Shown here piece by piece: positions 1,928 through 51,137 of a stretch of 51,137 nucleotides of DNA (position 1 is the first letter of the stretch; every line of letters begins with the position of its first letter). The stretch comes from Longimicrobiales bacterium (GTDB lineage: Bacteria > Gemmatimonadota > Gemmatimonadetes > Longimicrobiales > RSA9). The notes beneath the pieces are model-generated. The model saw only the letters and a list, made by a program, of their open reading frames with translations, was not told where the DNA came from and ran no database searches. The position numbers and the translations under genes were made by a program. The DNA is taken from positions 1 through 51,137 of the forward strand of contig DATHVO010000078.1 in assembly GCA_035461265.1 (NCBI GenBank), read 5' to 3'.

Positions 1928-2042
1928 CCGGCGACAGGCCGGACGGATCCGCACTTCAGGGCTGCTCGCCCCGGCCTCGTCACCGGGGCCCGCCGGTCCT
2001 GCCGGCCGCAGCACTACACTCCGCGCCTGCCGCCGGTCGCCG

Positions 2043-2414
2043 TCACGCCGCCACTTCCTCCTCGACCTCGTCCTCGCTGCGTGCCGACGGCGCGCCCAGC
2101 AGCACCAGTTCACGGACGTGCACCTCGGCCGTGGGAATCGTGACGCCGTTGCGCTCGAAGCTGTCGTACTCCATGCGGCCCTCCACGTATACGCGGTCGC
2201 CCTTGCGGACATAGTCCTCGGCGAGCTGGGCCAGGCGATCCCACAGTGTGAGGCGGTGCCACTCGGTGCGTTCCTCCGTGGCGCCTTCCCGGGCGAAACG
2301 GCGGCTGGTGGCCAGGGACACGTGCGCCACCTTCGCCCCCGCTGCCGTCGTCTGGACGTCGGGATCGCGCCCGATGTTGCCGACGAGGATGATCTTGTTG
2401 ATGGAACGACTCAT
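2043..2414 (-). CDS. ssb: Single-stranded DNA-binding protein (short form)
   Basis: INKIILVGNIGRDPDV...TEWHRLTLW...YVRKGDRVYVEGRMEY is a typical SSB OB fold. An AGGAGG lies upstream of the ATG. Confidence 0.9.
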   Translation of the reverse strand: MSRSINKIILVGNIGRDPDVQTTAAGAKVAHVSLATSRRFAREGATEERTEWHRLTLWDRLAQLAEDYVRKGDRVYVEGRMEYDSFERNGVTIPTAEVHVRELVLLGAPSARSEDEVEEEVAA

Positions 2415-2506
2415 GTTCGCGCCTCCTGTTGGGGTAGTGGACGACGCGAATATGGATGCCGTCGAGGGGCGCCTGAATAGCTGTCGGGGACTGTTTCAGC
2501 GACGGA

Positions 2507-3427
2507 TCAGCGGGCCAGCGTGCGGTCCGCCATGACGGCCGCGAGGAAGAGTGGCAGGAATGCCAGCGAAGCGACGAACAGCGCGCGCGCGCGCCGGATC
2601 GCGGGCTCGGCCAGGAAGTGACATGCGACGGCGGCGTAGGCTGTTCCGAGGCCTGCGGCCGCCGCGAGGTAGACGGTGCCGAGACCGCCGGCGACGACGG
2701 GAAGCATCGACAGCGGGATGATCGCCAGGGCACACGCGGCGCTCGCGAGGGCGGTCGTCCTGCCGGTCTCGTCACCCACCATGAGCATGCGGAAGCCCGC
2801 CGCGGCGTAGTCGTGCCGGTGCACCCAGCCGATGGCGAGGAAGTGGGGCATCTGCCAGAGGAGCAGTACACCGGTGAGGCAGAGCGCGGTCGCGTCGATG
2901 GCGGCGCCTGCGGCGGTCCAGCCCGCGAGGACGGGCAGGGCGCCGGGCACGGCACCCACGGCCGTACAGCTGCGGGACAGCCGCTTGAGCGGCGTGTACG
3001 CGGCCACGTAGGTGATGTGGCAGAGCACGAGGATCGCGGTGGTGACGGCGGGCAGCGCCGCGGTGGAGACGGCCAGGCCGAGTCCGGTCAGAGCCACGGC
3101 GAACGCGGTGGCCGTTCCCGCGGTCATCACGCCGCTCGCCACCGGCCGCCGGGCCGTCCGGAGCATGGCGGCGTCCGGGCCGCGTTCGAGGACGTGGTTG
3201 GCGGCGGCCGCCCCGCTCGACATCAGGAGTGTGGCTACCAGGACGGCGAGGAGCGTTGCCGGGTTCGCGGGAGCCGCGGCGACGGCGGCCGCTACGGCGG
3301 TGAGGGCCACGTAGGCGGTGATGCCGGGCTTCGTCAGGACTGCGTACGGTCTCACCCCGACGGCGGCAGTCGCCGCCACCCGGCCGGTACGCGCACCCTC
3401 CGGCACCACCGCCGCACGTGTGCTCAC
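2507..3427 (-). CDS. ctaB: Protoheme IX farnesyltransferase (heme O synthase), UbiA family
   Basis: Polytopic UbiA-type protein (YAVLTKPGITAYVALTA..., WQMPHFLAIGW). A GTG start at 3427 forms a GTGA overlap with the Sco stop. The longer ORF reaching 3679 overlaps Sco and is rejected. Confidence 0.8.
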   Translation of the reverse strand: MSTRAAVVPEGARTGRVAATAAVGVRPYAVLTKPGITAYVALTAVAAAVAAAPANPATLLAVLVATLLMSSGAAAANHVLERGPDAAMLRTARRPVASGVMTAGTATAFAVALTGLGLAVSTAALPAVTTAILVLCHITYVAAYTPLKRLSRSCTAVGAVPGALPVLAGWTAAGAAIDATALCLTGVLLLWQMPHFLAIGWVHRHDYAAAGFRMLMVGDETGRTTALASAACALAIIPLSMLPVVAGGLGTVYLAAAAGLGTAYAAVACHFLAEPAIRRARALFVASLAFLPLFLAAVMADRTLAR

Positions 3428-4362
3428 AGCCGCCTCACCAGCTCGACCAGGGCATCCGTACCGCCCGTCGTGGCATAAACGATCCGGCCCGCCGCGTCCA
3501 CGATGTAGCTGAGGGCGGGGTGAGCCACATCGCCCGTCCGCATGTCGCGCTCCCGGGCGACCTGCCAGGCATCGAGGACGGCCTCGACGTCCTCCGGCGG
3601 CCCGCCCAGCAGATACGACCCTTCGTCCATGCCCCAGCTCCGGGCGACGTGGGGCAGCCGCGCGGGCGTGTCCCGCCACGGATCGAGCGTGACGACCACC
3701 ACGGCAACGTCCCGCGGCGCGGCGTCGCCCCCGTCACCCGACGCGAGACGCTGGCGCGCATCGAGGGCATTGCGCACGAGGACCGGACAGACCGTCTCGC
3801 AGTGCGCGAACGCAAACGTGACGATGGCGGGCCGGCCCTCCAGCACCGTTGTGGAGAAGGCCGCGCCGGCGTGGTCGATGAGGTCCAGCGCGGGCGCCGG
3901 GCGATCGATGCGCGGGTAGGTCGCGGGCACGCCTTCCACTTCAGTCCAGCCCGCGGGGATGCGGGCGGCACTCACCCTCCAGCCCACCCCGGCGACGGCG
4001 ATCAGGACGACCGCGGCAACCGCACCACCCAGCATGCGACCCCGCGTCGTGGAGACCAGCGCCCGGGCCGCGCCGCCCAGGGCGCCCCGCCACCCCACCA
4101 GCAGCGCCCCGAGCATGCCCAGCGGCTGGCCCACCAGCGCCACCCAGCCCGCACGGTCCGGCAGACCGCCGCCGTCCACCCCGAAGCATACGAGACGCGT
4201 GCGCAGCAGCCAGTCCGGCGCGTCCCCGACAGGCCACAGCGCGAAGGCCCACCAGAAGACCGTCACCGCGAGGATGAACGCGCCCGCCCACAGCACGAAT
4301 GCCTCCTCCCGGCCGGTCCCCGGGTTCCGGCCGACACGCTCCAGCATCAGCCGATCCGCCAC
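3424..4362 (-). CDS. SCO1/SenC-family copper chaperone with an N-terminal multi-TM extension
   Basis: Thioredoxin-fold motif FAFAHCETVCP (CxxxC) plus a downstream His region. About 130 aa of hydrophobic N-terminal extension. An alternative start is at 4347. Confidence 0.8.
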   Translation of the reverse strand: MADRLMLERVGRNPGTGREEAFVLWAGAFILAVTVFWWAFALWPVGDAPDWLLRTRLVCFGVDGGGLPDRAGWVALVGQPLGMLGALLVGWRGALGGAARALVSTTRGRMLGGAVAAVVLIAVAGVGWRVSAARIPAGWTEVEGVPATYPRIDRPAPALDLIDHAGAAFSTTVLEGRPAIVTFAFAHCETVCPVLVRNALDARQRLASGDGGDAAPRDVAVVVVTLDPWRDTPARLPHVARSWGMDEGSYLLGGPPEDVEAVLDAWQVARERDMRTGDVAHPALSYIVDAAGRIVYATTGGTDALVELVRRL

Positions 4363-4457
4363 ACGAACGACAACAGCTTCCAGTTCGTGAAGTAGTACAG
4401 GGCGAACGCGGCCAGGAACACGAGGACCAGGATCATCGTCCCCGGCGTGCTGCCCAT
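4347..4457 (-). CDS. Small single-TM protein between oxidase subunit I and Sco
   Basis: MGSTPGTMILVLVFLAAFALYYFTNWKLLSFVWRIG has one TM helix and is packed tightly in the operon. The longer version starting at 4547 would overlap subunit I. Confidence 0.35.
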   Translation of the reverse strand: MGSTPGTMILVLVFLAAFALYYFTNWKLLSFVWRIG

Positions 4458-4488
4458 CCAGCCGTGTTCCTTGAGCCGGGCCTCGGCG

Positions 4489-6063
4489 TCAGGCGCCACC
4501 GGCGGTGGCGGATTCAGTAGCCCCGGCGGCAGTCCGTTCATGGGCATGAGCCAGATCTCCAGGTTGCAGTCTTTCGCCGAAGAACACGGACCAGACCGTG
4601 ATCAGTATGTACAGCGCCCCGCCCACCGCCGCGACGATGCCGCCCAGCGCCATCACCCCCATGACCATGTCCACGGATGGATGGAACTGCAGATCGAACG
4701 GAGCGTTCGTGAACGTGATGTCCCAGTGGCGACGAGGCACACCGAACGTGCCGGCGAACGTCATCATCACCGAGAAGACGAGCATCCCTCCCGCGAACAG
4801 GTAGGGCTGCACCTTCGCCAGTGGCCAGAAGGCGACTTTCCGCTGGAAGATGAGCGGGATCAGATAGTACGTGACTCCCATGAAGGCCATGGCAGTTCCG
4901 CTCACCACCGTGGCATGGAAGTGGCCCGGGATGCGGAGCGTGTTGTGCGCAATGATGTTGATCTGCTCCGTGCCGAACGTGACGCCGGTGATGCCGCCCA
5001 CGAAGCCGAAAACCACCACGGACAGCACGAGCGAGCTGAAGCCCGGGTCGCCCCACGGCGCACGCTTCAGCCAGCCGAACAGGCCCTGCGTGTAGCCGCG
5101 GGCACGCATGCCCAGCTCCACGCCTGCCGGCACCGTGAACCCGTGGAGCATGCTCGCCAGCACCGCCATGTACATGAAGTACGACGTGTTCACCACCTTC
5201 CAGGCCGGACCCATCCCCGGGTCCACCAGGAGGTGATGCGCCGCCGCCATGGAGATGAACAGCACGTACAGGACGAACGCGGTCCGGCTGATCTTCTCGT
5301 TCAGCACGACCGCCCCGACCGTCAGCGCCCCGAGGAGGTACCAGACGCCCACCATGGCGGCCACGTTGATCTGCTGCGATGCGTGCCCCAGCCCCCACCA
5401 CACCATCCGGTACACCTGCGGGTCCACGTGCATCAGGTCCAGTGACCAAAGGAACGTCGGGATGTAGATGGCCGCGCCGTGACCGAGCGTGATGACGGCA
5501 ATGATCGCCGCCGTCGCGGCGCCGAACGTGATGAGAGGGACCGAACCTTCGTACGAACGCTCGCGCTTCGCCACCACCAGCGTGGCGAAGAAATGCCCCA
5601 CCACCACCAGGGCCCCGACGGCGAACAGGATGACCCCGCCGTAGTACGCCGGATGCGCCCGCAGCGGGACGTACGAGGTGAACAGCACGTCCGCACGCCC
5701 GGTCCACATCGTCCACTGGACCGTGAGCATCCCCACGACCATGAGCACGAACGCCGCCCACCCGGTCTTCGGCGACGGAATCCGGCTGTTCAGGAGGGGG
5801 CCCGCGCAGAAGTACAGCACCGCCATCTCGAAGAACAGGATGTAGAAGATGAGCATGTTCATCCCGTGCACCGTGAGGATTCGATAGAACCAGACCGAAT
5901 CCAGCAGGTGCACCACCTGCCAGCGTGTCAGCAGCACCAGCACGGCGGCAACGCCGCCGACGAGGAGGGCCACCGTCGCCACCACAGCATGGGCCCGCAT
6001 CAGGAGCTCGCCCTGGCGGTCGATCCTCAGGCCCGTGGAGGGACATACGCGGAACGCGGTCAT
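4489..6063 (-). CDS. Heme-copper oxidoreductase subunit I, ba3/B-family-like, lacking the cross-link Tyr
   Basis: Colinear with Thermus CbaA as recalled from memory: TVHGMN, VDPQVYRMVWWGLGHASQQ, AAAHHLLVDPGMGPAWK, GLFGWLKRAPW, HNTLRIPGHFHATV. Its ATG overlaps the subunit II stop (ATGA). Confidence 0.9.
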   Translation of the reverse strand: MTAFRVCPSTGLRIDRQGELLMRAHAVVATVALLVGGVAAVLVLLTRWQVVHLLDSVWFYRILTVHGMNMLIFYILFFEMAVLYFCAGPLLNSRIPSPKTGWAAFVLMVVGMLTVQWTMWTGRADVLFTSYVPLRAHPAYYGGVILFAVGALVVVGHFFATLVVAKRERSYEGSVPLITFGAATAAIIAVITLGHGAAIYIPTFLWSLDLMHVDPQVYRMVWWGLGHASQQINVAAMVGVWYLLGALTVGAVVLNEKISRTAFVLYVLFISMAAAHHLLVDPGMGPAWKVVNTSYFMYMAVLASMLHGFTVPAGVELGMRARGYTQGLFGWLKRAPWGDPGFSSLVLSVVVFGFVGGITGVTFGTEQINIIAHNTLRIPGHFHATVVSGTAMAFMGVTYYLIPLIFQRKVAFWPLAKVQPYLFAGGMLVFSVMMTFAGTFGVPRRHWDITFTNAPFDLQFHPSVDMVMGVMALGGIVAAVGGALYILITVWSVFFGERLQPGDLAHAHERTAAGATESATAGGA

Positions 6064-6698
6064 GACTCACCTCCCGCCGCCGCCACGACAGCCGCGTCCG
6101 GCACCGCATCGGCGCCCTGCTCGAGTCCCTCGCCACCGGCGGCCGGCTCCGCCTCCGAGCCGTCCACGACGATGATCTTCCCCAGCATGATGTGGTGACC
6201 GATCCCGCAGAACTCGTTGCACACGATGCGGAAGTCGCCCGCCTCGGACGGCGTCACCCGGAGACCGTAGTCGTAGCCCGGCACCACCTGGAAGTTCACG
6301 TTGATGGGCACCAGACCGAATCCGTGGTTCACGTCAACCGACGAAAGGTGGAGCGTGTACTCGACCCCCTTCTGCAGCTTCAGGATGGGGGTCCACGACC
6401 ACATCCGGCCCAGCAGATAGATGTCACTGCCGGGCGGCGGCTCCACGATGGGAAAGCCTCGTTCGACGCCGACCTGGTACGCCTCTATGAATTCCTCCAC
6501 CCTGGCCTGGAACGCCGCAGGGTCGACCTTGCTGCGTATGCCCGATGGGTTCTGGCCACCCTTCAGATGCCACAGCGGCATCATCGCGAACAGCACCATG
6601 CACCACACGAACGCCAGCGTGAACCAGATCTTCTCCGATCGGTGCGCCGGCTTCCACCACACGCCCTTCGGCGACTCCATTCCGGTATTCATGCGCAC
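6060..6698 (-). CDS. Heme-copper oxidoreductase subunit II with a complete CuA site
   Basis: One TM helix plus a cupredoxin domain: SSVDVNHGF...FRIVCNEFCGIGHHIMLGKIIV (H, C, C, H, M ligands). Confidence 0.9.
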   Translation of the reverse strand: MRMNTGMESPKGVWWKPAHRSEKIWFTLAFVWCMVLFAMMPLWHLKGGQNPSGIRSKVDPAAFQARVEEFIEAYQVGVERGFPIVEPPPGSDIYLLGRMWSWTPILKLQKGVEYTLHLSSVDVNHGFGLVPINVNFQVVPGYDYGLRVTPSEAGDFRIVCNEFCGIGHHIMLGKIIVVDGSEAEPAAGGEGLEQGADAVPDAAVVAAAGGES

Positions 6699-6699
6699 C

Positions 6700-6861
6700 T
6701 CACGGCAGCGTCGCCGGCGGAAGGGTCAGAATCTCCCACAGGCCCCAGCCCGTGTAGAGCACCAGCATGATGAGCAGGCCCGCCGCCAGCAGCAGAAAGA
6801 CGTTGTCGTACAGCCTCTGGCCCAGCGGCACGCGCTCTTCCGGCTCGCCCGACTGCCTCAT
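6700..6861 (-). CDS. Small single-TM protein, possible ba3 subunit IIa analogue
   Basis: MRQSGEPEERVPLGQRLYDNVFLLLAAGLLIMLVLYTGWGLWEIL. Its ATG overlaps the Rrf2 stop (ATGA), and it ends 1 nt before the subunit II start. This position matches cbaD of Thermus. Confidence 0.45.
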   Translation of the reverse strand: MRQSGEPEERVPLGQRLYDNVFLLLAAGLLIMLVLYTGWGLWEILTLPPATLP

Positions 6862-7304
6862 GGCTCTCCTCCCCCCAGCACGACCATCACCCCCTGCCCG
6901 GCCGGCGCCCGCCGGCCTTCGATCAGGTCCGCGATCGTGGTGCTGCGAAAGAACTTGGTGATCGAATCCGCTACCGCCTTCCAGTGCCAGTGCGCCGTGC
7001 ACGGGTCGGCTTCATTGCACTCCCCCCGCCCGAGTATGCACCGCTGCCGCGACGGGATCGCATCGAACGGCGCCACCACGGCGTGGAGCGTGAGCGTATC
7101 GAGCGGGACCGCCACGCTGAATCCGCCCGTGCGGCCTCGCAGGGACTTCAGCACCCCATGCCGCACCAGCACGTGCAGCACCTTGTGCAGGTAGTTGCGC
7201 GGGGCCGCCACCGCGTCCGCCACCGACTCGGCCGTGGTCGGCCCTCCCTGCTGTGCGATGTGGAGCACGGCCCTCAACGCGTACTCCCCTGACTGTGACA
7301 CCAT
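6858..7304 (-). CDS. Rrf2-family transcriptional regulator with a three-Cys cluster (NsrR/IscR-like)
   Basis: The N-terminal wHTH (GEYALRAVLHIAQQGGPTTAESVADAVAAPRNYLHKVLHVLVRHGVL) and CILGRGECNEADPC are typical of Fe-S-binding Rrf2 proteins. Start chosen at the Met of MVSQSGEYALRAV. Confidence 0.8.
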   Translation of the reverse strand: MVSQSGEYALRAVLHIAQQGGPTTAESVADAVAAPRNYLHKVLHVLVRHGVLKSLRGRTGGFSVAVPLDTLTLHAVVAPFDAIPSRQRCILGRGECNEADPCTAHWHWKAVADSITKFFRSTTIADLIEGRRAPAGQGVMVVLGGGEP

Positions 7305-7360
7305 GTGCGCTCTACTTGTTTTTGTCATGATGAAATGATAAATAGGAGAACGCAAGGGTT
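7305..7360. promoter_or_regulatory. AT-rich divergent control region between the Rrf2-oxidase operon and the cytochrome b fusion operon
   Basis: The stretch ctacttgtttttgtcatgatgaaatgataaataggagaa is strikingly AT-rich in a GC-rich genome. It contains the TCATGA palindrome and ATCAT direct repeats. Confidence 0.4.
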
Positions 7361-8977
7361 TTGTTGTGTGCAAACGGGATGGCGACGGGGGCGAGAGGCA
7401 TGGACGGGGCCGGGTCGGCGGGTACCGCCGGACAGTCATGGGGCACGGCTCCCGCGCCGGGCAACGCGTCCTGGAAGCTGCTGGCCGTTTTGGACGGCTG
7501 GGTCAATCGGCTTTACGGCTCACGCTGGAATCCACTCTACCAGAGCGGGGCCATGACGGTGGCGCTCCTGCTGGTGGTGCTGGTGACCGGGCTGTATCTG
7601 CTGCTGTTCTACCGGTTGGGCTCACCGTGGGAGTCGGTGGCGCGGGTGACGGACCAGGCGTGGTCGGGCCGCTGGATCCGTGGCCTTCACCGGTACGCGT
7701 CGGACGGCCTGATCGTCACGTCTGCGGTGCATGCGTTCCGGATGTACGCACAGCGCCGGACGTGGGGCCCGCGCGCACTGGCGTGGGTGAGTGGCGTGAC
7801 GCTGGTGGGGGTGGTCCTGGTATGCGGCTGGACGGGCTACGTCATGGTGTGGGACGTACAGGCCCAGGTGCTGGCGGTGGAAGGGGCCCGCTTCCTGGAC
7901 GTACTCCCCATCTTCTCGGAGCCCATCGGCCGCGCGTTCGTCGGCGAGTACCCGCTGCCGAGCGCGTTCTTCTTCCTGAACCTGTTCGCGCACGTGGCGC
8001 TCCCGGTGGGACTGGCCCTTCTTGTCTGGGTCCACGTGTCCCGGGTTGCGCGTCCGGTCCTCCTTCCGCCTCGCCGGCTGCTGTGGGCCGTGGTGGCGGG
8101 GTTCACCGCGCTGTCTGTCGTCTGGCCGGTGGGCATGGCCCCGAAGGCGGATGTCCTGGCCGTGCCGGGGTCGGTGCCGCTGGACGTCTTCTACGGGTTC
8201 TGGCTTCCGGTGACGCGGTTGTTTCCTGGGTGGGCGGTGTGGGCGGCGGGTGTGTCGCTTCTGGCCGTGCTTCTGCTCGTTCCGGTGTGGACGCGGGTGC
8301 GGTCGGGGGTGCGCACGCACCGTTCGCGGGTGGACGAGCGACTGTGCACGGGGTGCGAGCAGTGCGCCCTGGACTGTCCCTACGACGCCATAGCAATGAT
8401 TGCCCGGGGCGATGGCCGACCGGGCAGCGTGGCGCGGGTGAACGCGGCCGTCTGCGTGAGTTGCGGGATCTGTGCGGCGTCCTGCGCACCCATGGGCGTC
8501 GGGCCCGGAGGCCGGACGGGGCGGGATCAGCTGGCGGCCGTCCGCGGATTCGGCGGAACGGGTGATGGCGTAGTTGTGGTGGCCTGCGCCCGCAGCGCCG
8601 GCGGCAGCGTCTCCGTGCCGGGGATCCGGACGTTGGCGGTGGAGTGCGCGGGCAACGTCCACACGTCGGTCATCGAGACCCTCCTCCGGGGCGGTGCGGC
8701 GGGGGTCCTCGTGGTGGCCTGTCCGGGACGGGACTGCTGGAACCGCGAAGGCGGCAGGTGGTTGAACGCGCGGGTCCACGACGGGCGCGAGGCGGAGCTG
8801 CAGGCGCGGGTGGACCGGTCTCGCGTCCGGCTGTGCTACCTGTCCGCCCGTGAGACGAGCCGGTTGACGGCGGCGGTATTCGACTTCGCCGCCACGCTCC
8901 CGGCGCCAATCGACGGGACCGACCGGCTCGATCTGGTCGCCGAATGCCAGCGCGCCGCTGCCGGTGAGGCGTCATGA
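7361..8977 (+). CDS. Fusion protein: di-heme cytochrome b membrane domain, 2x[4Fe-4S] ferredoxin, and MvhD/FlpD-like domain
   Basis: Two H-x13-H pairs in TM helices (HRYASDGLIVTSAVH, HVALPVGLALLVWVH). Ferredoxin motifs CTGCEQCALDCP and CVSCGICAASCAP. MvhD-like segment VVVACARSAG...VECAGNVHTSVIETLLRGGAAGVLVVACPGRDCWNREGG. The start is uncertain (TTG 7361 or ATG 7379). Confidence 0.8.
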   Translation: MLCANGMATGARGMDGAGSAGTAGQSWGTAPAPGNASWKLLAVLDGWVNRLYGSRWNPLYQSGAMTVALLLVVLVTGLYLLLFYRLGSPWESVARVTDQAWSGRWIRGLHRYASDGLIVTSAVHAFRMYAQRRTWGPRALAWVSGVTLVGVVLVCGWTGYVMVWDVQAQVLAVEGARFLDVLPIFSEPIGRAFVGEYPLPSAFFFLNLFAHVALPVGLALLVWVHVSRVARPVLLPPRRLLWAVVAGFTALSVVWPVGMAPKADVLAVPGSVPLDVFYGFWLPVTRLFPGWAVWAAGVSLLAVLLLVPVWTRVRSGVRTHRSRVDERLCTGCEQCALDCPYDAIAMIARGDGRPGSVARVNAAVCVSCGICAASCAPMGVGPGGRTGRDQLAAVRGFGGTGDGVVVVACARSAGGSVSVPGIRTLAVECAGNVHTSVIETLLRGGAAGVLVVACPGRDCWNREGGRWLNARVHDGREAELQARVDRSRVRLCYLSARETSRLTAAVFDFAATLPAPIDGTDRLDLVAECQRAAAGEAS

Positions 8978-9495
8978 GGGCGGGGCGCCGGCTGCTCGGA
9001 CTCGTGGTCGCGTGCGCGGCGCTCGGCGCCGTGGGAGCCGGCACGCGAGTCCCCTGGACGCCCTCGTCCGGCGAGGATGCGGTACTGCGCCTGTCGTGGC
9101 GCCTGCGAGGCGTGCGGGTGGAGGAGTGTCGCCGCCTGACGCCCGCCGAGCTGGAGCGCCAGCCCGCCCACATGCGCCGGGAGGAAGTATGCGAGGGGCG
9201 CATCGAACCGTACCGGCTCACGGTGGAGATCGATGGCCAGCGCGTCGAAGACGTCCTCGTCGCGGCGTCCGGCGCCCGGGCCGATCGCCCCCTCTACGTC
9301 TACCGCGAGTTCCGGCTCCGACCCGGCGAACATTCCGCCGCCGTCCGCTTCGCCGTTGAATCCGGCAGCGTCGGTGACGACGACCGGGTGGCCCTCACAT
9401 GGTCCGGACGCGCAGTGTTCCGGCCGGGGCGGGTGCTCCTCGTGACGTACGACGCCGACGCCCGGGCACTGGTGGCCCGGGACGCGCTGGAGTGA
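8974..9495 (+). CDS. Exported hypothetical protein
   Basis: Its ATG overlaps the upstream stop (ATGA). Signal-like MRAGRRLLGLVVACAALGAVGAG. Coding-like composition, but no motif I recognise. Confidence 0.55.
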   Translation: MRAGRRLLGLVVACAALGAVGAGTRVPWTPSSGEDAVLRLSWRLRGVRVEECRRLTPAELERQPAHMRREEVCEGRIEPYRLTVEIDGQRVEDVLVAASGARADRPLYVYREFRLRPGEHSAAVRFAVESGSVGDDDRVALTWSGRAVFRPGRVLLVTYDADARALVARDALE

Positions 9496-9654
9496 TGCGG
9501 GCATGATGGGCGTCTGCCGGACCCGGTGTAGGGGTTTTCCCGAATGCGGAACGTCGGCGGCAGGCTATGTTTTCTGGCGCCCTGTCCCTCGCCCGGACTG
9601 CGAGGGGGGAGGCAGTCGGCTCGTTCCGGAACCAGGACTACGGAGCAGTGCAGC

Positions 9655-15758: not shown

Positions 15759-17162
15759 TCAGTCCCGGCCGGGACGCGGCGGCTTCATCCTCTCGGCAAG
15801 GATCCTGAAGTTCGCGGCCGACTCCGGGATCAGCTCGAGATGCCCGGTCCCGACCCGGTCAACGAACAGCAGGCTCATCGGTCCGCCCGGCGCTCCGCCG
15901 TACATCCATTCCTCCGCGTTGGGCCGGCCGGGAATGAGTGCCTGTCCCACCTGCCGCTCCATGATGTAGTCCGGTGGTCCGAGGACGATGTACACCTCTC
16001 CCCTCGGGGTGAGGGACCCGGCACGGCCGCCCTGCCGGAACGCCTCCGCCGCGTCCCGGACGCGATGGAAGAACTCGTCCCGGAAGGGCATGAACCCCGC
16101 GTCGGCCCCGGGATCGCGCCGTTCCCAGAAGGCATCCCACGCTTCCCGCCGCTGGCGCGGGGTCCCGCCCCGAAGCTCGTCCAGTTCCTCGTTGTGGGCG
16201 ATGGGCCGGAGCGTGCGGATCAGGTCATCGAAATCGGTGATGACCCAGCGGTCGTCGATGGTGATGAGCAGCGACGTGGCGACGGGCGGCTCACCGGGAA
16301 CTGCCGCCTCCACGCGGTACAGGCCGGGGAGCAGCACATCGCCGGGCAGAACCACTGTGCCCCACTGCAGGTCCGGCGCAGCCCCCCCCATCTCAACCGT
16401 GCCGCGCCAGATCGTGTCATCCGCCATGTCGATGATGGCGAGCCCCGGCGCAGCCGTTAGGCGGTAGGCTTCGACATATGCGGATGGCGCCGCGCCCCCG
16501 AAACGCGCCGTGCGGCGGGGATCCGGAACGAACGCGGGCGGTTCCTCGCGCGTCGAGCGGCCGGCCGCATCGCCGCCGAGGACTGGCGGCGCGAGGCGGC
16601 GCCCGCCCGCGCCGTAGGCCGGAACCGTCAGCGTGTCCAGCGCATGGACGGAGCGTCCACTGTTCGGGTCGGCAACATTCACGCGGACATTGTACCGCCC
16701 CGGCCTCACGGCGATGGCGTGCTGGAAGGAGACCCGTGCGCCCGGCCGGTTCGTCTCCTCGAAGGACGGTAGCCGCGCCTGCGTGCGCACCGAGCCACGC
16801 GCCGCCACGACGGAGTCGCGATCCATGATGACGATCTCGAGGCTGCCCTCGGCGACGAACTCGTCCCCATCACGCACGAAACGCAGGGCCGTGTTCGGGA
16901 CGGAGACGCCGAGCACCACCCAGGTCGAGTCCCCGGGACCGGCCAGTGTCCACAGGCTCGCGACGGCCGGGAAGTTGGACGGCCCCGTGATGAAACCGAG
17001 CGCGGCGTACGCGGCCATTGCCTGGCCGGGGGCCCCGGCCCCGGACGAACTCCAGTCCCGCGCTTCGCGGGCCGCACAGCCGGCCAGGACGAGGCCTGCA
17101 AAGACAACGAGGGCCACCCCGCGGGTGGCCCTCGTTTCACTGCGCTGCCTGCTGGTGCGCAT
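15759..17162 (-). CDS. GWxTD-domain-like exported protein
   Basis: The C-terminal segment AFWERRDP...FHRVRDAAEAFRQ...PRGEVYIVLGPPDYI matches the GWxTD-domain layout, although the GWxTD tetrad itself is degenerate (GSLTPRG). Lipoprotein-like N-terminus (LAGCAA). Confidence 0.6.
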   Translation of the reverse strand: MRTSRQRSETRATRGVALVVFAGLVLAGCAAREARDWSSSGAGAPGQAMAAYAALGFITGPSNFPAVASLWTLAGPGDSTWVVLGVSVPNTALRFVRDGDEFVAEGSLEIVIMDRDSVVAARGSVRTQARLPSFEETNRPGARVSFQHAIAVRPGRYNVRVNVADPNSGRSVHALDTLTVPAYGAGGRRLAPPVLGGDAAGRSTREEPPAFVPDPRRTARFGGAAPSAYVEAYRLTAAPGLAIIDMADDTIWRGTVEMGGAAPDLQWGTVVLPGDVLLPGLYRVEAAVPGEPPVATSLLITIDDRWVITDFDDLIRTLRPIAHNEELDELRGGTPRQRREAWDAFWERRDPGADAGFMPFRDEFFHRVRDAAEAFRQGGRAGSLTPRGEVYIVLGPPDYIMERQVGQALIPGRPNAEEWMYGGAPGGPMSLLFVDRVGTGHLELIPESAANFRILAERMKPPRPGRD

Positions 17163-44964: not shown

Positions 44965-46290
44965 CTAGTCCGGCCGGGACCCGGCTCCACCGAGGTCGCC
45001 TGTCGCGTAGCGCTCCTCCTCGAGACGGATGCCCTGCAGCTCGATCTCGCTGGCCGGCTGCCAGACCTGGAAGAGCGGCACGCGCGCCAGGAAGAAGGAA
45101 ATCGACGCCAGGTAGAGCCCCGCGAAGAGGAGCAGCAGTCCGGGCTCCTGCCACGAGAGCGGCAGCGTCTCGGTCCCGATCCACAGCGACGGGTAGACCA
45201 TGAGATACCGCTCGAGCCAGAGGCCCAGGAGGCTGATGCTGGCGAAAGTCCCGAACAGGATGGGCGTGCGCTTCGACGGAACGGAGAGCAGGCCGAAGAA
45301 CGGGATGACGAACAGCAGCACACCCACCAGCTGCGCGATGATCCTGAACGGCACCACGAACCGGTGGATGACGAACTCCTGCTCGTGGGGCAGCAGGCCA
45401 TACCAGATCACGATGTACTGGGAGAAGAACATGTACCCCCAGAAGATGGTGAACCCGAAGGCCAGCTTGCCGAGATCCTGCAGCGTCGACGGGAGGATCC
45501 AGTTGTGGAGGCCCAGGCGCGCCCGGAGGGTGATGGTGATGAGCGCCGTCGTCATCACGCCACCCAGGATTGCGCCCATGAAGAAGTAGGGCCCGATGAG
45601 CGTGCTGAACCAGTGGGGCTCGAGGGACATGATGAAGTCCCACGCGAGCATGCCCATGATAAGGGCGTAGATCAGAGCTGCAGCCGGCGCGAGTATGGTG
45701 AGGCGGCGGTGAGCGTGGAGTTCCTCGGCCTCCTGGCCGCGCCAGTTACGCGTGAACCAGGTGTAGGTCGGCCGGAGGCGTGCGGGCACCCGGTCGCGCA
45801 TCAGTCCCATGTCGGGTCTGAGCGCCGTGTACGCGAAGGCGAGGGACACGCCGAAGAGCAGGGTCAGGCCGAAGATAGTCCGGGCCGTGAGGAACGGGAG
45901 GTTGAGCCAGACCTCCTTGCCGTCGTGGAGCGGGTGCTCGACCCAGGGCCAGATGTGCGGCGCGCCGAAGAGGAGGATTGGCACGACGGCGACGAAGGCG
46001 ATGGGCAGGAACGCGACGTGTGCGAGGGCGATCCGGCGGATGGGCCGTGACCAGATCCCCTTTGCGATGGACGTCACGACGGCGAGCATGAACCCGCCCT
46101 GTGCGATGCTCAGGACGAACAGCCAGTTGATGTAGTAGGCGCGCCATGCGCGCGTCGGCTCCATGAGGAGAGCGACGGCGAAGAGGATCGCGCCCAGCGC
46201 GATGAGGGCGATCGTCGCCAGGCGCAGGCCGCTGTTCACCGCCTCGATGCGAGCGGCGGGAAGCTCGTGGACCGCGGTTTCGTAGGACAC
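44965..46290 (-). CDS. actF: Alternative complex III subunit ActF (NrfD-like membrane subunit)
   Basis: Polytopic membrane protein following actE, with gene order B-C-D-E-F. Confidence 0.75.
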   Translation of the reverse strand: MSYETAVHELPAARIEAVNSGLRLATIALIALGAILFAVALLMEPTRAWRAYYINWLFVLSIAQGGFMLAVVTSIAKGIWSRPIRRIALAHVAFLPIAFVAVVPILLFGAPHIWPWVEHPLHDGKEVWLNLPFLTARTIFGLTLLFGVSLAFAYTALRPDMGLMRDRVPARLRPTYTWFTRNWRGQEAEELHAHRRLTILAPAAALIYALIMGMLAWDFIMSLEPHWFSTLIGPYFFMGAILGGVMTTALITITLRARLGLHNWILPSTLQDLGKLAFGFTIFWGYMFFSQYIVIWYGLLPHEQEFVIHRFVVPFRIIAQLVGVLLFVIPFFGLLSVPSKRTPILFGTFASISLLGLWLERYLMVYPSLWIGTETLPLSWQEPGLLLLFAGLYLASISFFLARVPLFQVWQPASEIELQGIRLEEERYATGDLGGAGSRPD

Positions 46291-46305
46291 TCGTTGTTCT
46301 CCTGG

Positions 46306-47007
46306 CTACTGCGGCGTCGCGGCCGTGTCGGCCGCAGGCGCGGCTGGCTCTGCGGGCGTACCGGGCGCCGGCGCGGGCATCGTCGTGGCGGCCGTCGTGT
46401 CCGCCGGCGCGGGCTGCGGCGCGACGCCGGCTGCGCCCTGGAGATGGTTCACGTAATTGACGACGGCCCAGCGCTCGATGTGCGTCATGCGTGCGCCGTA
46501 TGCGGGCATGAGGCCGCGCCCGGCCCGGACGACGCCGTAGACGTATCCGTCGCTCAGTCCCGTCGCTGGCGCCACCACGAGGGACGGCGCGAGCGGGAAC
46601 TTGCCCTGTCCGATGACCGGCCCGTCGCCTCGGCCCTCCACGCCGTGGCACACGCTGCAGTGCCGGTCGTACATGACCTGGCCGAGGGCGAGGGCGGCGG
46701 CATCGTCGGCGGCGAGGGGATTGACGCCCAGCGGGCTCGCGGCGAACTCGCGGAGCGCCTGATCCGTGGCCTCGAGGGGCGGCAGCACGAGGCCGCCTGG
46801 CGACTCGAACGGGATGGCGCCGGGGGGCGGCGGCAGCGGGTGCTCGTAGGGATCGAACGCCGGCGACGACCGCATGTACGCGAACACCGGGACCGACGCC
46901 AGCGCGTTGTCGATGCGGGTACAGCCGGTGCCCGCCGCGACGGCCAGCAATACCAGAGCGGTGGCGCTGCGGCTGCGCGCACGCCGCGTCACGTCAAAGG
47001 TCGCCAA
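46306..47007 (-). CDS. actE: Alternative complex III monoheme cytochrome c lipoprotein ActE
   Basis: Lipobox LLAVAAGTGC, a single CSVCHG heme motif, and a Pro/Ala/Thr-rich C-terminal tail. Confidence 0.8.
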   Translation of the reverse strand: MATFDVTRRARSRSATALVLLAVAAGTGCTRIDNALASVPVFAYMRSSPAFDPYEHPLPPPPGAIPFESPGGLVLPPLEATDQALREFAASPLGVNPLAADDAAALALGQVMYDRHCSVCHGVEGRGDGPVIGQGKFPLAPSLVVAPATGLSDGYVYGVVRAGRGLMPAYGARMTHIERWAVVNYVNHLQGAAGVAPQPAPADTTAATTMPAPAPGTPAEPAAPAADTAATPQ

Positions 47008-47530
47008 CCTTCACCTCCTCCACCTGCTCGCGGATCTCGGCCGCGCCGCTGCCCCGCATGATGTCGCGCACCTCGGCCTCCCGGCCGGGCGCCGTGACGA
47101 GCACGCCGAACCGGTCCGACGAGAAGCTGGGATCGTAGACCTGCAGGATCCTGCGCTGGGGCAGCCGCGCGTTGATCAGCAGGCCCGCGACGGTGGACAG
47201 CGCCCCGAACAGGATGGTCAGTTCGAAGGCCAGGATCACCCATGCCGGGAGGGATATGATGGGCTTGCCGCCGGTGACCAGCGGCCAGTCCATCGACATC
47301 CAGGTGGGCATGGCGAAGCCGGTTGCGGCGCCGGTCAGTCCGCCGACCAGCGTGAACATGCGCACGGGGCTCTCGCCGCCGTGGAGGGCATGCTCCAGGT
47401 CGTGACTCGGGATCGGCGAGAAGACGGTCATCCGCTTCATGCCCGCCGCCCGCAGGCGTTCAATGGTCTCCGCTGCGGCATCGACGTGGTCGTAGATGCC
47501 GAGCATGCCCTGCGTTCGCTGGCCGTTCAT
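46994..47530 (-). CDS. actD: Alternative complex III subunit ActD (DUF3341-like)
   Basis: GMLGIYDHVDAAAETIERLRAAG plus two TM helices. Its ATG overlaps the actC stop (ATGA). The longer listed ORF is rejected. Confidence 0.8.
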   Translation of the reverse strand: MNGQRTQGMLGIYDHVDAAAETIERLRAAGMKRMTVFSPIPSHDLEHALHGGESPVRMFTLVGGLTGAATGFAMPTWMSMDWPLVTGGKPIISLPAWVILAFELTILFGALSTVAGLLINARLPQRRILQVYDPSFSSDRFGVLVTAPGREAEVRDIMRGSGAAEIREQVEEVKVGDL

Positions 47531-48933
47531 CGTCCTTCCTCCGGCGGCCCGATCCTGCCGTGCGATTCGGCCACGCCCTGCTTCGCCTGGCGATACCGCC
47601 GGGGTGCAGGCAGCACCTCCTTCAGCTCGGCCACGGACACGGCCGGCAGCACGCGCAGGAACAGCAGGAACCACATGAAGAACCAGGCGAAGCTGCCCGC
47701 CACGATGGACATCTCCACCCACGATGGCTGGTAGTTCCGCCACTGCCACGGCTCATACTCGTGCGCCAGCGACGTCACGATTATGACGAACCGCTCGAAC
47801 CACATCCCGATGTTGATGAAGATCGTGATGGTGAACAGCGCCGGTATGTTCGTCCGCACCTTCCTGGACCACAGCATCATGGGGATGATGCCGTTGCAGG
47901 TGAGCATGATCCACGTGGCCCACCAGTAGTCGCCGGTCATGCGCCACCAGAAGATCTCGCGTTCGGGCGGCTCGAAGCTGTACCACGCCATGAAGAACTC
48001 GGTCAGGTACGCGTAGAACACGACCATCCCGGTGACCAGCACCATCTTCGCCATGGCATCGAAGTGGCGCGGCGTGAAGTACGCCTGGAGGTTGAAGATC
48101 TTCCGGATGGGCACGATCAGCGTGATCACCATGGCGAGGCCGGAGAAGATGGCGCCGGCAACGAAGTACGGTGCGAAGATCGTGGTGTGCCAGCCCGGCA
48201 CTATGGACATGGCGAAGTCCCAGGACACGACGGAGTGCACGGACAGCACGAGCGGCGTGGCGAGGGCGGCGAGGTAGAGGTATGCCTTGGTGAAGTGACG
48301 CCACTCGTTGGACGTGCCGCGCCAGCCGAAGGCCAGCATCGTGTAGAGCTTCTTGCGCCAGGGCACCGTCGTTGAGTCGCGGGCCGCGGCCAGGTCGGGC
48401 ATCATCCCCAGGATGAAGAACGTCGCGGACACGGTGAAGTAGGTGCCCACGGCGAATACGTCCCAGACCAGCGGCGACTTGAAGTTCGGCCAGAGGCCCC
48501 GCTGGTTCGGGTAGGGCAGCAGGTAGTAGAAGACCCACGGCCGGCCGAGGTGGATGATTGGGAAGAGGCCGGCGGTCATGACGGCGAACACCGTCATTGC
48601 CTCGGCCGCCCGGTAGATCGACTGTCGCCACCGCGCCCGGAACAGGAAGAGCACGGCGGAGATGAGCGTGCCGGAGTGGGCGATGCCGACCCAGAACACG
48701 AAGGTCGTGATGTAGACGCCCCAGCCGACGGGGTTGATGAGGCCGGACATGCCGATGCCCATCACGACCTGGAGCAGCCAGGCGCTCACGCCGACGCCGA
48801 GGACGGCCACGGTGATGGCCAGCAGGATGAAGTAGGACCGGCCGGGCTTGCCGAGGAGCTTCAGGACGTCGCGGTTGACGTCGCCGTAGGACGCGACTTC
48901 CGGGTGCGTCTCGGAGCGGATTACAGTGGCCAT
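47527..48933 (-). CDS. actC: Alternative complex III quinol-interacting subunit ActC (NrfD/PsrC family)
   Basis: A 468-aa polytopic NrfD-like protein immediately after the Fe-S subunit. Confidence 0.9.
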   Translation of the reverse strand: MATVIRSETHPEVASYGDVNRDVLKLLGKPGRSYFILLAITVAVLGVGVSAWLLQVVMGIGMSGLINPVGWGVYITTFVFWVGIAHSGTLISAVLFLFRARWRQSIYRAAEAMTVFAVMTAGLFPIIHLGRPWVFYYLLPYPNQRGLWPNFKSPLVWDVFAVGTYFTVSATFFILGMMPDLAAARDSTTVPWRKKLYTMLAFGWRGTSNEWRHFTKAYLYLAALATPLVLSVHSVVSWDFAMSIVPGWHTTIFAPYFVAGAIFSGLAMVITLIVPIRKIFNLQAYFTPRHFDAMAKMVLVTGMVVFYAYLTEFFMAWYSFEPPEREIFWWRMTGDYWWATWIMLTCNGIIPMMLWSRKVRTNIPALFTITIFINIGMWFERFVIIVTSLAHEYEPWQWRNYQPSWVEMSIVAGSFAWFFMWFLLFLRVLPAVSVAELKEVLPAPRRYRQAKQGVAESHGRIGPPEEGR

Positions 48934-48937
48934 AACC

Positions 48938-51137
48938 TCAGTGCCCCTCTGCCGAGTGCGGCGGCTCCGCGCGGAGCGAGACCTTCTTCAGGTACGTGAT
49001 CGCCGACTGCGTGTTGATCCCCTCGAACACGCGGTACCCCCGGCCGGACGCGGCCACCCGCGACACGCGGGAGTCGGGGTCCTTGATGTTGCCGAAGACG
49101 ATGGCGTCGCCCGGACATGTCTGCGCGCATGCCGGCGTGATCTCGCCATCCGCGGCGCCCCTGTCCTGGAGGCGCGCGGTGTTCTGGGCATCCCTGATCC
49201 GCTGGACGCAGAACGTGCACTTCTCCATGACGCCGGTCTCCCGGACCGTGACGTCGGGATTGAGCTGCCAGTTCAGCGGCTCCGGCCGTTCGTAGGAGAA
49301 CCAGTTGAAGACGCGGACCTTGTACGGGCAGTTGTTGGCGCAGTACCGCGTGCCGACGCACCGGTTGTAGACCTGCGCATTGAGGCCTTCCGGCGTGTGG
49401 TACGCGGCATACACCGGACAGACGGGCTCGCATGGAGCCGTCCCGCACTGCTGGCAGAGCATGGGGAGGAACTGGGTCTCCAGTGTGTCGTCGGCGCCGT
49501 CGAAGTAGCGCTCGATCCGGATCCAGTGGAGGATCCGCCCCTTCTGCACCTGCTCCGGCCCCACGATGCCGATGTTGTTCTCGGCGTAGCAGGCGGTGGT
49601 GCATGCGCTGCAGCCGATGCACCGCTCGAGGTCGATGGCCATGGCCCAGCGTGGCTGGGCCTCGCTGTACTCGCCGTAGTGCGTGCCCGGCTGCGGGAAG
49701 CCGCGGGGCGACGCGTCGATGTCCGCCGGTGCCCAGCCGCCCCCCTCCTGGAGGTTGCGGACGCGCGCATCGAGTGGGTGCACGTCGGGCTCGTGGGGGT
49801 GTGCGGGGCCGGGAACCTGGCCCGGTGCCGAGTAGGCCGTGCCGAGGGGCAGCAGCGCCAGGCCGCGGGCCTCGTCCCGGCGGCGCGCATCCATGAGGGA
49901 GGACGCCCGTGCGATCTCGCGGTCAGCCTGGTCCGTATGCAGCCCTGCCTGGATGGGCCGCTCCCATTTGCCGGTGGGGCGGATGCGGGCGCGCGTCTGG
50001 GCATAGAGCAGCGCGCCGGACATGGGTTCGGCGGCGGGCTCCAGCAGGTCCAGCGGATTGACGCCGCGCTCGTTGGCGTAGCGACCCAGGTGGCGGTGCC
50101 CCTGCCCGAGCTGGATGGCGATGGTGTCCGGCCGTGTGCCGGGGTGCCGCCACACGGGCACGCGGACGGAACCCCGCTCCGTCTCCACGTCCACGATGTG
50201 GCCGTTGTCGAGGCCGAGGCGCTCGGCCGTTCCGGGGTTCACCTCGACCCAGGACGACCAGGCGAACTTGCTCACCGGGTCGGGCAGCTCCTGCAGCCAG
50301 GGCCGGTTGGCGAGGCGGCCGTCGTAGAAACGGTATGACGGATAGACGATGAGATAGAAGGCGTCATCACCCGCGTCGCCGGAGAACGACGCCTCGATCA
50401 GTGACAGCGTGCCCAGGGTCCCGGTCTGCTGTCCCTGCGCCTGCGCGGCCGGCGTGGCAGCAGCGCCCGCCGCGGCGGCGCCCGCTGGCGTTGCCGGTGA
50501 CGGGGACGGCGGCGCGGCGGCCTGGCCGTCCCGGGGGATGAAGCCGACCTGCAGGGCCTCCTTCCACCAGTCCTCGAAACCGGCATCCGAGCCGGTGGAG
50601 ACGGGACCGAGGGACTCCCTCAGGAAGTCGTAGTACGTCGTTGCGGTCGTCGGCAGGGCGGCGTTCAGGCGTCTGGCGACGGACAGGAGCACGTCCCCGG
50701 TCTGCTTGGTCTGGAAGACCGGCACCATGACCGGCTGTACGAGCGCCGTGAGTCCGGTGCGCGGTACGTAGTCGCCCCAGCTCTCGAGGAAGTGGTGGTC
50801 CGGCAGGAGCAGGTGTGCCTTGCGGCTTGTCTCGTCGAGCATGGTCGAGAAGGACGCGATGAACGGCACCATCCCGAGTGCCTGCTCCACGGCCTCGCTG
50901 TCCGGCATGCTGTAGAGCGGATTGGGACCGTGCAGGAGCAGGGCGCCCACCTCGCCGTTGCGCATGCGTGCGACGAGCTGCTGCATCTCCGCATAGCTGC
51001 CGTTGCCCGCTGCGTGCTCCTCGCGGTCGTCGAGACGGACCGTCGTGCCGACGTTGCCGGCCACCTGGTTCAGCACGGCGACGGCCGCGGCCACGGCGGT
51101 GGCGGCGCTGTGGGTGGATGCGATGCCCGGTCCGACG
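48938..51137 (-). CDS. actB: Alternative complex III subunit ActB (molybdopterin-like domain fused to a 4-cluster Fe-S domain), 5'-partial
   Basis: C-terminal CIGCSACTTAC, CQQCGTAPCEPVCP, CVGTRYCANNCP, CTFC and CAQTCP motifs. The N-terminal MopB-like part runs off the window edge. Confidence 0.9.
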   Translation of the reverse strand, partial: VGPGIASTHSAATAVAAAVAVLNQVAGNVGTTVRLDDREEHAAGNGSYAEMQQLVARMRNGEVGALLLHGPNPLYSMPDSEAVEQALGMVPFIASFSTMLDETSRKAHLLLPDHHFLESWGDYVPRTGLTALVQPVMVPVFQTKQTGDVLLSVARRLNAALPTTATTYYDFLRESLGPVSTGSDAGFEDWWKEALQVGFIPRDGQAAAPPSPSPATPAGAAAAGAAATPAAQAQGQQTGTLGTLSLIEASFSGDAGDDAFYLIVYPSYRFYDGRLANRPWLQELPDPVSKFAWSSWVEVNPGTAERLGLDNGHIVDVETERGSVRVPVWRHPGTRPDTIAIQLGQGHRHLGRYANERGVNPLDLLEPAAEPMSGALLYAQTRARIRPTGKWERPIQAGLHTDQADREIARASSLMDARRRDEARGLALLPLGTAYSAPGQVPGPAHPHEPDVHPLDARVRNLQEGGGWAPADIDASPRGFPQPGTHYGEYSEAQPRWAMAIDLERCIGCSACTTACYAENNIGIVGPEQVQKGRILHWIRIERYFDGADDTLETQFLPMLCQQCGTAPCEPVCPVYAAYHTPEGLNAQVYNRCVGTRYCANNCPYKVRVFNWFSYERPEPLNWQLNPDVTVRETGVMEKCTFCVQRIRDAQNTARLQDRGAADGEITPACAQTCPGDAIVFGNIKDPDSRVSRVAASGRGYRVFEGINTQSAITYLKKVSLRAEPPHSAEGH

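Follow-up and report, generated by a model that had tools for sequence, protein, structure and literature searches.

The window analysed here, the whole 51,137-nucleotide contig DATHVO010000078.1 of a Longimicrobiales bacterium (Gemmatimonadota; assembly GCA_035461265.1), carries on its minus strand a seven-gene cluster that is led by an Rrf2-family regulator and contains a two-subunit haem-copper enzyme. The catalytic subunit is named cytochrome c oxidase subunit I, and its database homologues are all annotated as cytochrome c oxidase. We describe the cluster as, very probably, a nitric oxide (NO) reductase of the eNOR family together with maturation genes and a regulator. An earlier note, made from the sequence alone, had read it as a ba3-like, CuA-fed NO reductase, or an enzyme of another non-O2 chemistry, without the His-Tyr cofactor of O2 reductases, and had left the exact family unassigned. 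The NO reductase reading is supported, since the Gln that replaces the cofactor Tyr is diagnostic of eNOR and a purified eNOR is active on NO but not on O2. The family can now be named as eNOR from Gln231 and the CuA subunit. The enzyme family is already described and biochemically tested, and the novelty is low. An IscR-like Rrf2 protein with a conserved palindrome, a divergent cytochrome b fusion with its 173-residue partner, and the recurrent fission of a subunit I helix are modest secondary leads.

The helix VI residue at H+4, counted from the first CuB His, tells the families of haem-copper enzymes apart (PMC8756737, Table A4). It is Tyr in the O2 reductases, Glu in cNOR, qNOR and nNOR, Asn in sNOR and bNOR, and Gln in eNOR (PMC8756737, Table A4). 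For gNOR an Asp is listed as active-site residue, the family being defined by a His-to-Asp change (PMC8756737). Schwartz et al. 2022 used the Gln to define the eNOR ingroup sequences (PMC8756737, section 2.7.1). The eNOR family was predicted in 2008 (Hemp & Gennis 2008), was biochemically validated in 2024 (PMC11214002) and is now routinely counted in metagenomes. Murali et al. 2024 report that the purified eNOR of Rhodothermus marinus (Rmar_0161) reduces NO at 0.68 per s at 25 C and that no O2 reduction occurs with several donors (PMC11214002). The eNORs are derived from the B family and have a CuA subunit and a K-like proton channel, and some members have a His/Lys low-spin haem (PMC11214002). 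Their cofactors are of the haem a-type (As), and ctaA is present in 'many' of the operons, not in all (PMC11214002). In R. marinus complete denitrification is supported by eNOR (PMC11214002).

Among solved structures, subunit I comes nearest to the ba3 oxidases from Thermus thermophilus and from Aquifex (E about 1e-43). In a HMMER alignment to the T. thermophilus protein (E~5e-43), GHASQQINV of the window protein lies on GHPIVYFWL of ba3. GH227ASQQ231 is thereby aligned with GH233PIVY237, placing Gln231 at ba3 Tyr237 and Asn233 at Trp239. Each of the six metal-ligand His (H66, H227, H276, H277, H381 and H383) has its counterpart among the ba3 ligands, with His/His ligation of the low-spin haem and a full set of three His for the CuB/FeB site. 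The alignment confirms the statement of the earlier note that subunit I is colinear with ba3, keeps the six His and has Gln for the cross-link Tyr and Asn for the next Trp. Because Gln231 stands at the place of the His-cross-linked Tyr, the fourth electron donor for O2 reduction is absent. The QQ pair and the following Asn (Q230-Q231-x-N233) are found in 239 of 240 database homologues that were picked without regard to motif, and this constancy of QQ argues for purifying selection.

Homologues were collected from a scan of 1.84 billion cluster representatives, and the full-length relatives were sorted by motif. The earlier note had proposed to place subunit I in a superfamily tree. In a neighbour-joining (NJ) tree of 50 sequences (493 columns, 100 bootstraps) it falls among Gemmatimonadota sequences inside a monophyletic GHxxQQ[IV]N clade (98/100 bootstraps), outside the B-family clade. 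The QQ clade emerges within a grade of Tyr-bearing GHxxQY sequences. The published classification holds a K family of O2 reductases that is sister to eNOR, next to a B family and a J family, and the nesting of the QQ clade in the QY grade agrees with this sister relation. The GHxxQY[IV]N group (P0126, P0127, P0132 and P0147), which includes proteins from metagenome-assembled genomes (MAGs) of Hodarchaeales (Asgard) and Thermoproteota, probably represents the K-family O2 reductases. A fourth group (P0164, P0178, P0226 and P0269) has Tyr in place of one CuB His (YH) and of the high-spin haem His (GYFH), which matches the published description of the J family.

The composition of the QQ clade also points to eNOR. 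It includes a haloarchaeal Natrarchaeobius protein and members from Chloroflexota, Alphaproteobacteria and Thermus. These are taxa reported for eNOR, and they were counted for the assignment; a Thermus sequence is included in the published eNOR alignment. The Thermus member reads GHFK, with Lys for the low-spin haem His, and was counted likewise since this is the His/Lys variant reported for some eNORs. Relatives of the QQ group in PLSDB lie on a Thermomicrobium roseum megaplasmid (53% identity), a Defluviimonas plasmid (52%) and the denitrification megaplasmids of T. thermophilus (46-50%). On two of the latter (L003 7983-9668 and L084 5983-7665) the eNOR-like GHFK subunit I is annotated as a cbb3-type oxidase. 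The matches listed in a homologue search with the Defluviimonas protein are Rhodobacterales at >=80% identity. In a genome scan, relatives of subunit I are encoded by at least 544 species genomes of many phyla.

The residues that mark the other families are not those of the window protein. The cross-link position holds Gln231 and not the Asn of sNOR and bNOR. The gNORs have an active-site His changed to Asp and a subunit II without CuA ligands (PMC11214002); here the three His are present and the CuA site is complete. The nNORs have a His/Met low-spin haem and the cNORs a cytochrome c subunit (PMC11214002; PMC8756737). The window enzyme has Gln231 and not the Glu of nNOR, cNOR and qNOR, a His/His low-spin haem and a CuA partner subunit. 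The cross-linked Tyr of the B-family motif GHP[ILV]VYFW, present in 13 of the 13 B-family sequences of the alignment, is missing. The window protein reads QQ where the K family has GHxxQY, and the QQ clade does not take in the QY sequences, which form a grade. The gene content of the cluster was counted for eNOR as well, because a preprint on Ferrigenium straubiae KS describes eNOR II, eNOR I, haem o synthase, sco1 and a protein of unknown function as a 'very common' set for eNOR (10.64898/2026.01.22.701106). Taken together, these features let us place subunit I in the eNOR family with high confidence.

Several points weigh against this assignment. It rests on the diagnostic residue, the clade composition and the operon content, and not on a direct comparison with the named eNORs of R. 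marinus (Rmar_0161), Magnetospirillum and Natronomonas. The tree is NJ and not maximum likelihood. A single eNOR has been assayed so far, and its turnover is low (0.68 NO per s) (PMC11214002). Whether the active-site metal is Fe or Cu does not follow from the sequence of subunit I. The genes nirK, nirS, nosZ and ctaA were not recognised in the 51-kb window, and because of the missing ctaA the haem type is not predictable. When Thermus nirS and nirK were used as tblastn queries against 84 loci, the matches were limited to the Thermus loci and one nirS-like sequence in L066, although the queries are distant and weak homologues could escape.

That the enzyme is an ordinary B-family (ba3-type) terminal oxidase which reduces O2, with the Gln tolerated or compensated, for example by Tyr266, appears extremely unlikely. 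Its best solved relatives are ba3 oxidases, CuA, K-channel-like residues, Sco and CtaB are typical of oxidases, and the database name is that of an oxidase. However, the cross-linked Tyr is absent in the same 239 of 240 homologues, the identity to T. thermophilus ba3 is 27.6% over the trimmed alignment, with the protein outside the B-family clade, and purified eNOR does not reduce O2 (PMC11214002). The alternative Tyr position of cbb3 offers no substitute, since Ile270 stands there, six residues before the HH motif. We take this position to be the site of the migrated Tyr in cbb3; in the cbb3 oxidase of P. stutzeri the migrated Tyr251 lies six residues before His257/258. The earlier note had raised a helix VII Tyr as a possible substitute for the lost Tyr. 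This residue, Tyr266 (VLYVLFISMAAAHH), is located ten residues before His276 of the HH motif, not six, and is invariant in the QQ clade and present also in the Tyr-bearing QY and J-like groups. Because it is equally conserved in relatives that keep the cofactor Tyr, it is no response to cofactor loss, and a role as compensating cofactor Tyr is rejected on position and conservation pattern.

The distribution of Tyr266 instead mirrors that of ba3 Tyr244. The B family has Tyr244 with Phe or Leu at position 272, and the eNOR/K lineage has Val or Ile at the 244 position with Tyr266. From this pattern we infer that the K-channel Tyr may have moved from helix VI to helix VII in the eNOR/K lineage. 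Other K-channel positions are conserved as Ser304, Thr310 and Tyr242, together with Glu20 of subunit II; ba3 Thr312 corresponds to His307 and Tyr244 to Val238. The conserved K-type residues are consistent with the K-like proton channel reported for eNOR.

Some other chemistry that does not involve O2, such as N2O reduction, NO dismutation or the reduction of peroxide or another small oxidant with low-potential electrons from the cytochrome b-FeS partner described below, is also very unlikely. In its favour stand the assay of no more than one member of the family and the proposals that other Tyr-less branches of the haem-copper superfamily are NO dismutases or N2O reductases (PMC11214002). The partner, with cytochrome b, two [4Fe-4S] and MvhD parts, is moreover without counterpart in known NO reductase systems. 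The active-site residues are identical throughout the clade, so a chemistry differing from that of the assayed member is not indicated. The proposed NO dismutase and N2O reductase families are related to qNOR and cNOR and not to the B family (PMC11214002).

The eNOR cluster and its divergent neighbours are listed in Table 1; the profile matches that identify the families lie far beyond chance. In the open reading frame (ORF) list of the 51-kb window the seven minus-strand genes at 2507-7304 are tightly coupled in the order Rrf2, 53-residue transmembrane (TM) protein, subunit II, subunit I, 66-residue TM protein, Sco and CtaB. The Rrf2 stop and the ATG of the 53-residue gene (7304-6858 into 6861-6700) share an ATGA overlap, as do the stop of subunit II, at 6060, and the start of subunit I (6063-4489). 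Subunit II starts at GTG 6698 or ATG 6692, which is 1-7 nt past the end of the 53-residue gene. The 66-residue ORF shares 59 nt with the 3' end of subunit I and reads them in a different frame, one base is common to its stop and Sco, and the GTG start of CtaB (3427) overlaps the Sco stop as GTGA. The ORFs and junctions thus match the packed arrangement that was seen in the sequence before. A sigma-70 scan of 2000-9600 gave no promoter-like site, and terminator-like sites are at chance level. The G+C content of 68-70%, like the homologues, points to a Longimicrobiales-like genome of Gemmatimonadota.

Table 1. Genes and candidate control site of the eNOR cluster and the adjoining divergent genes (positions in the window)
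Feature	Position	Strand	Basis
Rrf2-family transcription factor, operon gene 1	6858..7304	-	PF02082 E=1e-24
53-residue single-helix membrane protein, 5' of subunit II	6700..6861	-	predicted TM helix, residues 21-39
Probable eNOR subunit II, CuA cupredoxin, one TM helix	6060..6698	-	TIGR02866 CoxB E=3e-13, PF00116 E=8e-4
Probable eNOR subunit I, catalytic haem/non-haem-metal subunit, 524 residues	4489..6063	-	PF00115 COX1 E=2e-56
66-residue ORF, detached C-terminal TM helix of subunit I	4347..4547	-	alignment with fused relatives
Sco/SenC copper chaperone, thiol-disulfide type	3424..4347	-	PF02630 SCO1/SenC E=7e-22
CtaB, haem o synthase (protohaem IX farnesyltransferase)	2507..3427	-	TIGR01473 E=1e-58, PF01040 UbiA E=4e-38
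Near-palindrome, 20 bp, candidate operator in the divergent intergenic region	7322..7341	-	conservation among related loci
Cytochrome b-2x[4Fe-4S]-MvhD-like fusion, divergent	7361..8977	+	PF00033 E=3e-12, Fer4, PF02662 FlpD E=1e-12
173-residue beta-sandwich protein	8974..9495	+	AlphaFold2 model; no Pfam, NCBIfam or PDB sequence relative

The conservation of the cluster was surveyed in the best 80 of the at least 544 matching species genomes, which are nearly all MAGs of Gemmatimonadota, Acidobacteriota and Myxococcota and include no Rhodothermus. Subunit II consists of one TM helix and a periplasmic cupredoxin domain with a complete CuA site (H...CxEFCxxxHxxM), and its match to CoxB is weak (E=3e-13). 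Conservation across 81 sequences is at least 95% for the CuA ligands (HGF...CNEFCGIGHHIM) and for Glu20 (RSEKIW), which sits where the TM helix meets the cytoplasm; this bears out the full CuA site and the Glu near the TM start of the earlier description. The 53-residue protein matched no family in a Pfam search. Its homologues are encoded just 5' of subunit II in 68 of the 80 loci and also in T. roseum and Defluviimonas. By gene order its position is, we assume, that of subunit IIa (CbaD) in the Thermus ba3 operon.

The 66-residue ORF aligns with a C-terminal helix (...PGTLVL..FL..F..YY..NW..LS..W.IG) that T. roseum, Defluviimonas and P0121 carry within subunit I itself. This extra helix is fused to subunit I in 62 related loci and separate in 15. 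Judged from these alignments, the 66-residue ORF is the detached C-terminal helix of subunit I, and fission of the gene is a recurrent event in several lineages. A frameshift or sequencing error as the source of the overlap is ruled out by the 15 split loci and by the closest homologue, which is 95% identical and was seen on 10 contigs. Since that homologue also has 524 residues, the split is real.

The Sco protein conserves the CxxxC (HCETVCP) and LDPxRD motifs, a homologue follows the enzyme genes in 72 of the 80 loci, and it is presumed to be a CuA assembly factor. It has an N-terminal extension of ~130 residues with three predicted TM helices, compared with the usual single anchor. CtaB adjoins the cluster in just 16 of the 80 close relatives and is present also in the eNOR operons of T. 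roseum, Defluviimonas and Ferrigenium.

By homology to the R. marinus enzyme, electrons from a periplasmic carrier would enter through the CuA site of subunit II and pass to the low-spin haem and then to the centre of high-spin haem and non-haem metal. At this centre two NO would be converted to N2O and water. The conserved residues suggest that protons are taken from the cytoplasm by a modified K-type channel of Glu20 (subunit II), Thr310, His307, Ser304, Tyr242 and Tyr266, in which case turnover would be electrogenic. From their family roles, Sco would load or reduce the CuA site and CtaB would supply haem o as haem precursor. The window also contains at 44965-51094 (minus strand) a quinol-oxidising complex resembling alternative complex III (ACIII) or Qrc, with molybdopterin-like and FeS, NrfD-like membrane, mono-haem cytochrome c and further membrane subunits. 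This complex could be an electron route to CuA.

The Rrf2 protein exceeds the cut-off of the family model TIGR00738 (98.6 bits, cut-off 73.3) and falls below that of every equivalog model (IscR 65/207, NsrR (NF008240) 32.3/182). Its best solved relative in a PDB search is E. coli IscR (E=2e-10), and NsrR was unmatched at E<=0.001. A ligand set of Cys89, Cys96, Cys102 and His105 is conserved in 37 relatives, and the N-terminal Glu7 is not conserved. By its sequence the protein is a cluster-binding sensor with an IscR-type Cys3His set and not an NsrR orthologue. An identity with NsrR is ruled out by the score of 32.3 against 182, by IscR as best relative and by the three Cys and His105, with no conserved counterpart of the N-terminal Asp ligand that NsrR has. 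The connection to the NO sensor NsrR that had been drawn in the earlier note is accordingly unsupported. Because the protein is not an NsrR orthologue, responsiveness of the cluster to NO remains inferred.

In 33 of the 80 related loci an Rrf2 homologue immediately precedes the cluster on the same strand. The palindrome TTATCATTTCATCATGACAA, preceded by CTTGCG (7351-7356), is unique in the 51-kb window (0 expected from 100 shuffles). A TTATCATAT[CT]A[TA]CATGATAA-like site is present in at least 22 related loci between the cytochrome b fusion gene and the Rrf2 or small TM gene, usually preceded by CTTGCG, and two loci keep the palindrome without an adjacent Rrf2 gene. Its conservation makes the palindrome a candidate operator of the divergent promoter, presumably for the Rrf2 protein. 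The Rrf2 protein probably controls this promoter through the palindrome, and would release or activate when its Fe-S cluster is changed by NO, O2 or the redox state.

The eNOR might serve the detoxification of NO or the control of signalling under microoxic conditions and not respiratory denitrification, a reading that we regard as possible but less likely than not. The window has no recognised nir or nos genes, and none came to light beside the Gemmatimonadota relatives as far as tblastn with the distant Thermus nirS and nirK queries can tell. An Fe-S-cluster Rrf2 protein at the head of the operon is typical of a stress-response arrangement, and some O2 is needed for haem a synthesis and for eNOR expression (PMC11214002). 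However, the negative covers 51 kb of this genome only, and Gemmatimonadota MAGs are reported among the carriers of both N2O-producing and N2O-consuming genes. In other organisms eNOR is tied to denitrification genes, with nirK and nirS in Thermus and nirK in one operon with eNOR in Ardenticatena, and it supports complete denitrification in R. marinus (PMC11214002). The Thermus neighbourhood was itself counted for the eNOR assignment. The eNOR-like genes of Thermus adjoin nirK and nirS on one side and, on the other, a different Rrf2 gene (30% identity over the helix-turn-helix domain) followed by a RIC/ScdA-like fragment. These neighbours support a link of the enzyme family to nitrosative chemistry and to Rrf2-type control.

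Divergent from the cluster is a gene for a fusion protein. It joins a di-haem domain like that of cytochrome b6, for which six TM helices are predicted, to two [4Fe-4S] motifs (CxxCxxCxxxCP) and a domain that resembles MvhD/FlpD and is predicted to be cytoplasmic. Its start candidates are TTG 7361, ATG 7379 and ATG 7400. The relatives of the fusion in the PDB are cytochrome b6 (E=5e-13), HdrA and MvhD, and the C-terminal half resembles the C-terminus of HdrA2 (E=7e-19). Across 68 sequences His110, His124, His211, His225 and the two CxxCxxCxxxCP motifs are retained. A gene for the fusion is found within 6 kb of subunit I in 70 of the 80 loci; half of the remaining loci lie on truncated contigs. 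In 58 loci, most of them from Gemmatimonadota and Acidobacteriota, the gene lies upstream in divergent orientation. Defluviimonas and 12 loci of other phyla (Methylomirabilota, Myxococcota, Leptospiraceae and Burkholderiales) have it behind Sco and transcribed in the same direction.

The 173-residue protein is encoded by a gene that is coupled to the fusion gene by an ATGA overlap and stands beside it in 60 of the 80 loci. Two alignments have invariant Cys52, His66, Met67 and Cys73. The AlphaFold2 model (pLDDT 92) consists of an N-terminal signal or anchor helix and a beta-sandwich. No Pfam (20 members), NCBIfam or PDB profile match was obtained, and the best hit of Foldseek against the PDB has E=0.06 and a TM-score of 0.34. 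Judged from sequence and gene order, the fusion and the 173-residue protein may be accessory components in electron supply or in assembly and metal delivery. A more specific proposal, which we consider rather doubtful, is that the pair forms a dedicated and previously unrecognised module of a large eNOR subclade. Such a module would connect eNOR through the membrane with the quinone pool or with a low-potential partner in the cytoplasm, as a new NO-respiring supercomplex, or else bring in the non-haem metal. Control of the whole would lie with the IscR-like Rrf2 protein, acting through the palindrome.

Elsewhere in the window, a GWxTD-domain protein is encoded at 15759-17162 (minus strand) beside genes for MotA/TolQ/ExbB-like and large tetratricopeptide repeat/lytic-transglycosylase proteins; these neighbours were identified by eye. 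The group is unrelated to the eNOR cluster.

The eNOR-type enzymes make N2O yet are routinely mis-annotated as cytochrome c oxidases, and their recognition changes the counts of NO reducers and N2O sources. The window presented here is one more Gemmatimonadota example in a family that is catalogued in thousands of sequences. The near-constant companions, the cytochrome b-FeS-MvhD fusion and the presumably periplasmic 173-residue protein, suggest an undescribed route of electron input or assembly for eNOR. The conserved candidate operator with an IscR-like Rrf2 protein in Gemmatimonadota is of possible use to specialists.

Among known systems, cNOR and qNOR (NorB) share with the window enzyme the superfamily fold, the lack of the Tyr cofactor and a variable residue at helix VI H+4. 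They differ in having Glu in this position, which is Glu211 in P. aeruginosa NorB, in the use of a cytochrome c subunit or quinol instead of CuA, and in lacking a cytoplasmic proton channel. The T. thermophilus ba3 oxidase (PDB 1EHK/1XME) has in common with it a colinear subunit I of 12-13 helices, the six His, a CuA subunit II and, upstream, a gene for a small third subunit. The K-channel residues Ser309, Thr315 and Tyr248 of this oxidase, and Glu15 of its subunit II, have counterparts in the window proteins. The differences from ba3 to the window protein, at 27.6% identity, are Tyr237Gln231, Val236Gln230, Trp239Asn233, Tyr244Val238, Thr312His307 and Phe272Tyr266. The GHxxQY[IV]N relatives, which bear the Tyr, show 37-44% identity to the window protein and have Gln230, Asn233, Tyr266, His307, Ser304 and the six His in common with it. 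They keep Tyr at the cross-link position, where the window protein has Gln, and so are presumably O2 reductases.

The eNOR family and its R. marinus member (Rmar_0161), beside which the window was set by description only, have the same B-family origin, CuA subunit II, three His, Gln at the Tyr position, K-channel-like residues, and haem o synthase and Sco in the operon. As in that family, relatives of the window protein are found in haloarchaea, Chloroflexota, Proteobacteria and Thermus, and one relative has the His/Lys haem variant. The window differs by its Gemmatimonadota host, the operon without ctaA, the subunit I helix that is split off, and the Rrf2 gene and palindrome that lead the operon. 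The eNOR operon of F. straubiae KS has matching gene content, including a cytochrome b plus [Fe-S] protein (10.64898/2026.01.22.701106). In Ferrigenium, however, the cytochrome b genes, which the preprint calls unusual, are co-directional and one also has FAD and NADH domains (10.64898/2026.01.22.701106). The cytochrome b-FeS-MvhD gene of the window is divergent. In the part of the eNOR family surveyed here the fusion is not unusual and is the rule.

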